A DNA stretch of 29,119 nt from a virus. Taxonomy: Duplodnaviria; Heunggongvirae; Uroviricota; Caudoviricetes. The stretch is from IMG/VR virus record IMGVR_UViG_2872152978_000003. One strand, 5' to 3'. Position numbers: made by a program. Shown in pieces: positions 7,914-10,900 of this stretch. How positions within the stretch are numbered: position 1 is the first letter of the stretch; each line of letters starts with the position of its first letter.

Positions 7914-10900
7914 TGATTTAGTGTATGATGGTGATTTTAAGGTGCTTGCGTGGCTTCCATTTCCATCAGATGTCCTTCCTGCTCCGCTACTGAAGGCGTA
8001 GTGCGTAACGGCAAAAGCACTGCCGGACATCAGCGCTATCTCTGCTCTCATTGCCGTAAAACATGGCAACTACAGTTCACTTACACCGCCTCTCAGCCCG
8101 GTACGCACCAGAAAATCATTGATATGGCCATGAATGGCGTCGGATGTCGCGCCAGTGCACGCATTATGGGCGTTGGCCTCAACACGGTTTTACGTCACTT
8201 AAAAAACTCAGGCCGCAGTCGGTAACCTCGCGCATACAACCGGGCAGTGATGTGATTGTCTGCGCTGAAATGGACGAACAGTGGGGCTACGTCGGTGCTA
8301 AATCACGTCAGCGCTGGCTGTTTTACGCGTATGACAGGATACGGAGGACGGTTGTGGCGCACGTCTTCGGTGAACGCACTCTGACCACACTGGAGCGTCT
8401 TCTGAGCCTGCTGTCGGCCTTTGAGGTCGTGGTATGGATGACGGATGGCTGGCCGCTGTATGAATCACGCCTGAAGGGAAAGCTGCACGTTATCAGCAAG
8501 CGTTACACTCAGCGCATTGAGCGACATAATCTGAATCTGAGGCAACATCTGGCAAGGCTGGGACGGAAGTCACTGTCGTTCTCAAAATCGGTGGAGCTGC
8601 ATGACAAGGTCATCGGGCATTATCTGAACATAAAACACTATCAGTAAGTTGGAGTCATTACCATTGCATCCTTATCAGCACCACTGGCCAGCGCTTCAAT
8701 CTCAGCAGCTATCTGCAGATATCCCATGCAACGACCAATGCACTTCATCAGCCCCTGCTTTTTATTGTTCTTCAGGTAATCAATGGCAAATTCAATGAGC
8801 GCCTCACTATGCTGGTGCGATGGCGGTGTTAATTTCCCATTTTCTGAGATGGTTATTTTCCCGCCATCTCCGTATACAACAAAGGATGGCCGGTTACACT
8901 CCCATTCCTGATCTTTATCAGGTGCAGACGCAATAAAATAACGTTTATTTCCTTCCTCTCCGGCACTTTTAACCGTAATGGAGTACTCAGACTGCAGACA
9001 AGACGCCTCTTTTTCTGACCGCAGTGTTGACGGCGGCATCTTCAGAGAACAAGTAATTATTCCCGGTAGTTTTCCTCTGTAGGTTATCAACACATCCTGC
9101 GCCTCTAAAATGATGGGGCGCTTTTCCTGCAACGGTTCGTTCCCTTCACATAACCCGGCAGCAACATCCATGAAAAACTGCTTCGCCTGCTTTTTCGCCT
9201 CCGCTTCGTAAAACTCCAGCGTGGCACCTTCAGTACGGTCAAGACTAATCGCCACATATGGCAACAACAGTGACGGATACCCACCAATTTCCAGTGCCAC
9301 AGTAACAGTAATCTTATCCGGGTAATTATTTATCCCTTTAACAACCAGTTCGTATTTTTTCTTCATCACTTTACTCTCCCCGTGCAGCCTTACGACGGTC
9401 CTCTCTGATTTTGAAATACAGGTTAGTCAGATATGTCAGCAGCCCAAACAGCAGACTCCCCAGCACGCCTATTGCCGCCCACTGAGACGGGGAAACCCTG
9501 TCCAGCAACTGCAGGAACCAGTAGCCCGTTCCCACCGCTGACGTGGTGTATGACACACCTGTTGTGATTTTTTCCATCTGGTACATACCCCGTCTCCCGT
9601 TATCCGGAAGCTGACAACAATAAAAAAAGCCACCAGTTAAGTACTGATGGCTCTGATAACTCATGCAGGCATCTCAGACGACCCACTGACACTACCGGTG
9701 AGTTTAACGATACCTTCCATTTGACTGGCTCACTTTTTATGATGATGCCGGTGCATTTATCTCCAGCACCAGACTTTCTATCTCAACGCCATACGCTGCA
9801 TTTTTGGTAATATCCGTCAGCGTCAGTGCATTTAGTCCCACTGCCAGACTGTCTTTTATGGCCTGGAATGCCGGGCCAGCCACTCCATTCAGTTTCGGAG
9901 TAACCGTGGCACTGCCGGCGGTGAACACCAGCTCCAGCGTCTGCCAGTCGTTACTGTAATTCCCGAACTCGCCCAACTTTGTGTTTCCGGCTTTCTTGTG
10001 ATGCATCAGATTCCGTTTGCCGTCTGTGGTCTGGGTGAAGAACGACATCAGGAACGGGTTACCAGTCCCGGTCATCGCCACGACGTCAGGTAACGCTACA
10101 TCGGTATACAGATAAATTCCCAGACCGAACTGATTGTTGGTCAGTGCGCCTGACAGTCGAAACTTACAGCTCAGTCTGCCACCCCGTGTCAGCAGGGAGA
10201 CTGCGTCATCCACCGGGCGCGTCAGGGACCAGGCTTTATTGCTCTGCTTGGCGATCTTAAATACACCACCCGACAACTGAATTCCGCCGTCCTTAATGGT
10301 CCAGCCCTGCGCAGCAGCCTCTCCGGCTGTCGGCAGCAGGGAGATTGTGCGAACGGACGTATCTGCAGACGGACCCGATGGCGTGTCGCCGCCGGGCGAG
10401 GGTTTGATTTCCGGTGCCTTACCACTGATGAAGGCTGAGGTGCGCCCGGCTGCGTTCAGAATAGCGGTTGCCATACGATCGGGAATAATGCCACGACGCG
10501 CCCATGAGCTGAAATTTGTCGGGCGATTTGATGATACCCAGTTTTTGTTCGTTCGGGATGCCGAACCGTAATAACCAGACCCGACAATATCAGGATCTTC
10601 TGACGGGTTGTTTGTCGGTGTATTAACTCCGCTACCATCGGTCATAAAGGGAACAAAATAAATCTGCTGGGATTCTTTACCTTTATATGCACCATATACC
10701 ACTTCATATTGCGTACCGTGTTCTTGTTTCCACGCGTATGTCGTGTCGCCACAAATCCAGGGGACTGTTGCCGGACTTCCACCGTGACACTGCGCCGCCA
10801 GCCCGGCAAGGTCAGCGCGGAACTGCTGTACCATTGCAAGAAATGCTGCTGGCTGCTGGGCGTAACTGGCATTCGTCCTATCGAATTCCCCCTGCATCCA

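Follow-up and report, generated by a model that had tools for sequence, protein, structure and literature searches.

Probable identity of the reading frame behind an S21-type pinholin gene in a decayed lambdoid prophage: a YdfR-family accessory gene truncated by IS1

The virus record IMGVR_UViG_2872152978_000003 (Caudoviricetes) is represented by a stretch of 29,119 nucleotides (nt), called the window below, in which an S21-type pinholin gene and, directly after it, a truncated open reading frame (ORF) both lie on the minus strand. An earlier note had regarded this ORF as unrecognised, as standing in place of the endolysin, and as either an unfamiliar lysis enzyme or a cargo gene in the R slot. 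We find that the ORF is very probably a YdfR-family (DUF1327) accessory gene of the lambdoid late operon, preserved over its 5' 88%, located in its usual place behind the holin gene and cut short by the insertion sequence (IS) IS1. In intact relatives the gene occupies the first coupled position after the holin, and the endolysin gene R comes after it; because an S21-type holin gene is found directly upstream in 87 of the 88 informative loci, and a gene for an R21-like signal-anchor-release (SAR) lysozyme (PF00959), followed by Rz, downstream in 87 of 88, this is an accessory gene added between S and R, not one that takes the place of R. The phrase "in place of the endolysin" thus describes a deletion and not the normal position of the gene. 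The gene and its family are ordinary, already known and annotated.

Identity of the gene and its place in the lysis cassette

Profile searches place the ORF product in the YdfR family. Residues 2-101 match PF07041 (DUF1327) with 147.9 bits against a cutoff of 25 (E 1e-43), and the whole fragment matches PHROG 1085, a family of unknown function, with E 5.5e-134, so that the product cannot be called unrecognised. Its residues 1-77 are 45% identical to residues 1-77 of K-12 YdfR, and the closest protein is a 268-residue "YdfR family protein" (P0001, 95% identity); NCBI already holds proteins that are 100% identical, under the name "YdfR family protein, partial [Shigella dysenteriae]". At the nucleotide level, the holin gene and the ORF together are 98% identical, over 1036 of 1038 nt, to the Shiga toxin (Stx) 2-converting phage 86 and to prophages of E. 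coli O104:H4. Some match to this 1,038-nt query was found in 3,066 of the 5,426 complete E. coli genomes, and the long type, covering at least 80% of the query, in 505 of them. The homology, together with an omega of 0.22 (see below), rules out a chance reading frame.

Phage records, E. coli genomes, IMG/VR contigs and assemblies supplied 90 related loci, in which tblastn was used to map the holin, the N-terminal and C-terminal modules of the YdfR-family protein, R and Rz. The relatives' R is located 0.6-1.9 kb downstream of the holin gene. Phage 86 carries, in this order, stx2AB, nanS-p, S, gp05, a reverse-strand ORF of 104 amino acids (aa), R, ant, Rz/Rz1, bor and terminase, with gp05 (YP_794052.1) encoding the full-length form of 268 aa between holin S and lysozyme R. 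The O104:H4 prophage has the same order, and the gene is annotated there as a pseudogene. The window gene is the same gene as these two, with the same nanS-p and holin genes upstream; the copy in phage 86 is complete and has the rest of the cassette behind it, whereas the copy in the window stops at codon 235 in IS1. In the cryptic prophage Qin of K-12 the order is essQ-ydfR-rrrQ, where ydfR (P76160) has a homologous N-module, fills the same slot upstream of the lysozyme gene, begins after the same 4-nt spacer, and overlaps rrrQ by ATGA. In the window, Qin and phage 86 alike, the gene thus belongs to a lambdoid lysis cassette and comes right behind a class II (S21-type) holin gene. The earlier note had said that its reading would fall if homologues never occurred next to holins in intact phages; full-length homologues do stand beside pinholins in such phages, and the same loci keep an R21-like lysozyme gene behind them.

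What sets the window apart is a complete copy of IS1, which has the expected length of 768 bp, terminal repeats of about 23 bp and the insA/insB genes (its 23-nt inverted repeats show 87% complementarity, and matching records annotate it as IS1 or IS1SD), and which interrupts the ORF at 8663/8662. The frame is open for 235 codons from the GTG at 9369 to 8663, in agreement with the earlier estimate of at least 235 aa, and continues for seven codons inside IS1 before a stop. Similarity of the window to intact phages ends at 8665. The far flank of IS1 is a truncated IS911; the two flanks of IS1 are therefore unrelated sequences and not contiguous phage DNA. Nowhere in the 29-kb window is there a remnant of R, Rz, ant, bor, terminase or the missing C-terminal tail of the gene, and the idea that R or the C-terminus might be present as a second copy at another site was rejected on this ground. 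Because similarity ends at the end of IS1, the other flank is truncated IS911, and the relatives at 98% nucleotide identity retain R, the absence of R, Rz and terminase here is due to IS-mediated deletion beyond IS1 and not to displacement. The loss of the 33 C-terminal residues takes away FDNPPFK..W..PG..YLK.RI, the most conserved linear motif of the protein, and for this reason the window copy is almost certainly a non-functional, dead remnant, as the earlier note had suspected from the IS1 cut at its 3' end (IS1 at 7895-8662).

The identification of the upstream gene as an S21-type pinholin is borne out. Its product matches PF04971 with 112.5 bits against a cutoff of 26 (E 9e-33), matches PHROG holin families as well, and is 79% identical to EssQ of the Qin prophage. 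It has the length of about 70 aa, the hydrophobic core (a hydropathy maximum of 1.70 at residues 36-54, in a 19-aa Kyte-Doolittle window) and the charged C-terminal tail of the class, and is predicted to form pinholes. The frame is also open upstream to an ATG at 9664, which offers an alternative, longer start.

On the minus strand the junction between the two genes reads ...CGG GGA GAG TAA A GTG ATG AAG.... The earlier note had described a stop overlapping a start. The string that it quoted, GAGTAAAGTGATG, is present at 9376..9364, and the genes are tightly packed and probably coupled, but they abut without overlap: TAA at 9373-9371 is followed by A at 9370, GTG at 9369 and ATG at 9366, leaving a spacer of 1 nt (GTG) or 4 nt (ATG). 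ATG is the start chosen by RefSeq annotators for the homologues in phage 86 and Qin. Translational coupling of the ORF to the pinholin, through a ribosome-binding site contained in the last codons of the holin gene, is plausible because the purine-rich run GGGGAGAG lies inside the last holin codons at Shine-Dalgarno distance, 4-8 nt 5' of the GTG/ATG of the next gene. The same arrangement, CGGGGAGAgTAa(N3-4)ATG, that is, a GGGGAGA motif with an ATG 3-4 nt past the holin stop, recurs in 80 of the 86 related loci in which the holin is complete. The earlier impression of a junction like that of a holin and an endolysin was a fair one: in DLP12, whose cassette lacks the insert, essD and rrrD are joined by a TAATG overlap.

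Modular architecture of the protein

The product is a soluble cytoplasmic protein whose DUF1327 head is followed by a mosaic, disordered stretch and then by a conserved helical C-module. The three parts are defined by an alignment of the E. coli forms with Salmonella relatives, which are 31-40% identical and retain both modules. In the full-length AlphaFold2 model the head is folded beta-beta-beta-alpha, the middle is disordered, and the C-domain comprises three short strands and four helices; the C-domain modelled alone is confidently predicted (pLDDT 85.5, pTM 0.76). The middle forms a coiled coil in some variants, carries "KRPIILEAQDVLITY..." and "YSITVKSAGEEGNKRYFIASAP..." blocks in the type found in the window, and shows module shuffling in the alignment. 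The protein is mildly acidic overall (isoelectric point, pI, 5.6-5.9), with the N-terminal and middle parts at pI 5.1-5.3. The Qin protein has only 103 aa, a DUF1327 head with a short helix, to which the window type adds a disordered segment of about 80 aa and a C-module of about 110 aa.

In the C-module, H186, I195, L198, G211, R212, L217, Q218, A220 and A221 are invariant, and E222, E224, P248, K250, W256, P259, G260, Y263 and L264 nearly so. We take this module to be under purifying selection because the median Nei-Gojobori omega is 0.22 over 35 pairs. It is an uncatalogued orphan domain: Pfam has no model for it, and a search with its profile returned only "hypothetical proteins" of Escherichia, Shigella and Salmonella and no informative domain fusions. 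The N domain of the Salmonella relatives is unmatched in a Pfam search and is a remote DUF1327 homologue by hhalign (87.7%, E 3.4e-6). An exhaustive HMMER search of 1.84 billion representatives produced only 71 clusters, and in this and the profile searches the family is confined to prophages of Escherichia, Shigella and Salmonella; matches with the head are named "YdfR family" or "DUF1327 domain-containing", and the others "hypothetical protein". A scan of species-representative genomes gave 3 loci.

The modules are combined in several ways within one and the same slot. The 90-locus census contains the fused two-module form in 39 loci, the C-module alone in 41, and a C-module gene with a separate DUF1327 gene of 75 aa in 7, while the DUF1327 head occurs either alone, as in Qin, or joined to other C-terminal tails. 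In the split and permuted form (L003-L007, 6001-6897, plus strand), a 213-aa gene encoding a coiled coil and the C-module (P0069, on 203 contigs) comes directly after the pinholin, then the 75-aa DUF1327 gene, then the lysozyme, a pattern of gene fission and fusion that links the modules. Fusions of DUF1327 to unrelated tails (P0058, P0117, P0047, P0170) include a 305-aa form on 275 contigs, a fusion to an ANT domain (P0117) and a form with a different C-terminus (P0058); the head behaves as a reusable N-terminal handle.

Two other observations concern the neighbours of the gene. In some 40 of the 90 E. coli loci the C-module gene faces a convergent, reverse-strand ORF of about 104-105 aa that has no Pfam match; this ORF occurs in the Salmonella clade too, at 48% identity, which makes it a conserved gene pair; it is absent from the window, where it would fall beyond the IS1 cut. 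In Salmonella-type prophages (L011, L092, L094, L095) the two-module homologue is upstream of the holin gene and after Q, often with a reverse-strand hicAB pair beside Q. The holin there is HP1-type (PF16080) in L011, L092 and L095 and S21-type (PF04971) in L094, and the copy of the gene in L011 is frameshifted.

The protein is not a muralytic enzyme. The earlier note had seen neither a SAR segment nor a muralytic motif, and both observations hold. The product contains no transmembrane or SAR segment; its best 19-aa Kyte-Doolittle window scores 1.29, at residues 22-40, in predicted beta strands, whereas the SAR of phage 86 R reaches 1.88. Profile searches, including Pfam and NCBIfam, gave no match to a lysozyme, amidase, peptidase or other muralytic family, and NCBIfam gave no match at all. 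Among PDB sequences, neither phmmer with the 268-aa form nor hmmsearch with the C-module profile found anything significant, and the best matches, the KEOPS subunit Pcc1 and a PhoU homologue at E 0.03, are taken as chance. A Foldseek comparison of the full-length model with PDB yielded no E below 0.25, with scattered weak matches to dsRBD, EndoV and PTP that we do not use as evidence, and one with BFVD yielded nothing; two AlphaFold models and three fold searches contained no hint of a peptidoglycan hydrolase. The profile and structure check that the earlier note had suggested has thus identified DUF1327 and no known endolysin fold. With the R21-type SAR endolysin the ORF shares only its position after the holin and the tight junction; the SAR or transmembrane segment, the lysozyme domain, the catalytic motif and the fold have no counterpart in its product. 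Lysis in the intact relatives is done by the pinholin, the SAR lysozyme and Rz/Rz1.

Possible functions of the intact protein

Literature searches found no functional data for DUF1327, and for YdfR only one relevant paper (PMC13232886, 2026); comparative papers on Stx phages describe S, R and Rz and not the YdfR-family gene. That paper reports a bacterial two-hybrid screen that yielded K-12 YdfR; YdfR residues 1-72, the region to which residues 1-77 of the window product are 45% identical, were sufficient for interaction with RNase E 1-597, and a weaker interaction with RNase G was seen. Rne 1-598 co-purified with Strep-YdfR, and so did DNase-resistant nucleic acid, i.e., RNA, as it does with RapZ. 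The interaction maps to the catalytic domain (Rne 1-597/598), which YdfR would share as a target with RapZ and with SlyX and YegJ from the same screen (PMC13232886); we found no sequence or fold relationship of YdfR to any of these three.

By analogy with the Qin protein, the DUF1327 head of the long form would bind RNase E at the enzyme's catalytic N-terminal half, RNA, or both, in the way reported for residues 1-72 of K-12 YdfR, the C-module would engage a second partner, and the whole protein would act late in infection as a cytoplasmic adaptor that modulates host RNA decay, not in envelope breakdown. We offer this mechanism tentatively, as something possible that falls well short of probable. 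Several points weigh against it. The link to RNase E comes from one study, which showed binding for the 103-aa Qin protein only; in that study overexpression of YdfR caused no growth defect and few transcriptome changes, and a contaminating RNA binder was not excluded by the authors (PMC13232886). The C-module is found in 41 of the 90 loci with no DUF1327 match nearby (tblastn E <= 1e-4). Its invariant H, R, Q and E residues might form a small catalytic or metal site, and the coupling to the holin, strictly conserved in E. coli, is also compatible with a role in timing lysis.

This last role is the main rival explanation, and in our view an unlikely one. The product would then be a cytoplasmic regulator, antiholin-like or a holin chaperone, made in coupling with the pinholin and acting on its basic cytoplasmic C-terminal tail or on the SAR lysozyme before release. 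Phage T4 provides a precedent in RIII, a small soluble cytoplasmic antiholin that acts on holin T in lysis inhibition. The likeness is one of analogy, not of homology: both proteins are soluble and encoded with lysis genes, and the YdfR-family protein could act on the cytoplasmic domain of the holin; in contrast, the gene in the Salmonella clade is not coupled to a holin. Such a regulator would account for the position in the cassette and for the 3-4-nt junction, which is kept in the 80 of 86 loci whichever module comes first, as well as for the additional coupling of ydfR to rrrQ in Qin, and the acidic N-terminal and middle parts would suit a basic holin tail (pI 10.8). However, the Salmonella-clade gene stands uncoupled after Q/hicAB, upstream of either an HP1-type or an S21-type holin, many cassettes with an S21 holin, DLP12 essD-rrrD among them, do without the gene, its copies are often pseudogenes, as in O104:H4, and S21, by means of a dual start, supplies an antiholin of its own. 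A transposon screen did flag ydfR for envelope integrity, at least as it is cited in PMC13232886 (Paradis-Bleau 2014), but this phenotype could be a polar effect on rrrQ.

Less likely again is a moron that benefits the lysogen, through superinfection exclusion, anti-phage defence or counter-defence, inserted at a permissive site of the late operon. The shuffled, fused and split modules, with the DUF1327 head on other tails (P0117, P0058), would be in keeping with it, as would the conserved reverse-strand ORF that accompanies the gene in E. coli and Salmonella and the adjoining hicAB in the Salmonella clade. Yet PADLOC gave no match for four architectural variants at E <= 0.1, and a gene that is coupled to the holin and has the orientation of the Q-dependent late operon should be silent in lysogens; K-12 RNA-seq indeed has almost no ydfR reads (PMC13232886). 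It is very improbable that the gene is cargo which, in this phage lineage, pushed R out of its slot. Its optional and mosaic nature and the absence of R here would suit that idea, but its nearest full-length relatives keep R, Rz/Rz1 and terminase downstream, and the similarity to them stops exactly at the end of IS1, with truncated IS911 on the other flank. That the ORF encodes an unrecognised lysis enzyme, working with the pinholin in the role of a SAR endolysin, can practically be dismissed, since the gene context already contradicts it, even though the ORF directly follows the pinholin at a junction like that of a holin and an endolysin and the window contains no lysozyme.

Beyond the adaptor mechanism, the head-linker-C-module design leads us to consider, as a rather doubtful generalisation, that the lambdoid and Stx phages of enterobacteria have in the long YdfR-family proteins a distinct and as yet undescribed class of late-operon effector, in which a disordered linker would join a head docking on RNase E or RNA to an orphan helical C-module with invariant His, Gly-Arg, Gln and Glu residues.

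The surrounding prophage and what the gene means

The window is a decayed, IS-riddled lambdoid prophage of Shigella type, read on the minus strand (Table 1). Its early part consists of an integrase, a cI-like repressor, Rha/Ash, replication genes, DUF968 and the Q antiterminator; after Q come an IS3-family insertion, a DNA methylase, three tRNA genes, the split nanS-p, the pinholin, the truncated ydfR-family gene and the IS stack. nanS-p is placed as it is in phage 86 and O104:H4; it is split here but a single ORF in O104:H4 (L002 3111-4964), which makes the window copy a likely pseudogene. The late genes, those of the pinholin region included, are probably cut off from the late promoter by the IS after Q. 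The tRNA with anticodon CAT is annotated as tRNA-Ile in O104:H4, and the tRNA arrangement matches the late regions of Stx phages; there are no stx genes in the window.

Table 1. Coordinates of the features discussed (positions in the window, unless another locus is named)
Feature	Position	Strand	Remarks
S21-type (class II) pinholin gene	9371..9586	-	71 codons (9586..9374) and TAA 9373-9371; PF04971, PHROG, EssQ, ORF list
Shine-Dalgarno-like purine-rich run GGGGAGAG, putative coupling junction	9374..9381	-	Within last pinholin codons; sequence read directly
Probable YdfR-family gene fragment	8663..9369	-	235 codons from GTG 9369, 234 from ATG 9366; last 33 of 268 codons gone
N-terminal DUF1327 (PF07041) module, residues 1-77	9136..9366	-	Predicted beta-beta-beta-alpha; AlphaFold2 pLDDT 70-85
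Variable middle, residues 78-157	8896..9135	-	Predicted disordered (pLDDT <40); mosaic between phages
Conserved C-terminal module, truncated, residues 158-235 of 158-268	8663..8895	-	Conserved residues, C-domain model, omega
Complete IS1	7895..8662	+	768 bp, 23-nt inverted repeats; insA/insB ORFs on plus strand
nanS-p (DUF1737 + SASA sialate O-acetylesterase + DUF6645)	9737..11632	-	In-frame stop 11399-11401 (...SNPEY*)
Three tRNA genes, Met/CAT, Arg/TCG, Arg/TCT	12136-12385	-	Between DNA methylase and nanS-p
IS3-family element (orfA HTH_Tnp_1, orfB rve)	14322-15595	+	Immediately downstream of Q, before late genes
Q antiterminator gene	15619-16026	-	
cI-like repressor	22792-23523		
IS3-family element (rve transposase)	23880-25084	-	Immunity/early-left region, adjoining cI-like repressor
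Insertion-sequence stack	1-7894		Pattern typical of Shigella genomes
Hexapeptide-repeat transferase ORF	1080-1625		
IS66-family element (tnpA/B/C)	3241-5573		
IS3-type remnants	5817-6475	-	
IS911 copy truncated by IS1	6757-7894		
Reverse-strand ORF of about 104-105 aa (other loci)	L001 4809-5123; L011 6804-7121; L092 5807-6124	-	

For the window itself, the result means that an annotated accessory gene has been truncated and a lysozyme deleted; the pinholin has gained no new kind of partner. The orphan status of the C-module is of modest interest and not specific to this window. The family has a wider place in enterobacterial biology, as it resides in the lysis cassette near stx and nanS-p in Stx phages, and more than half of the complete E. 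coli genomes match the query. RNase E binding, if true of the family, would tie RNA decay in the host to the late development of the phage. Were the long proteins indeed a class of their own, their synthesis would keep pace with that of the pinholin, in the final minutes of infection they would reprogram RNA decay in the host or determine when lysis occurs, and the fused, split and permuted forms, together with the convergent ORF of about 104 aa, would constitute a small functional cassette.

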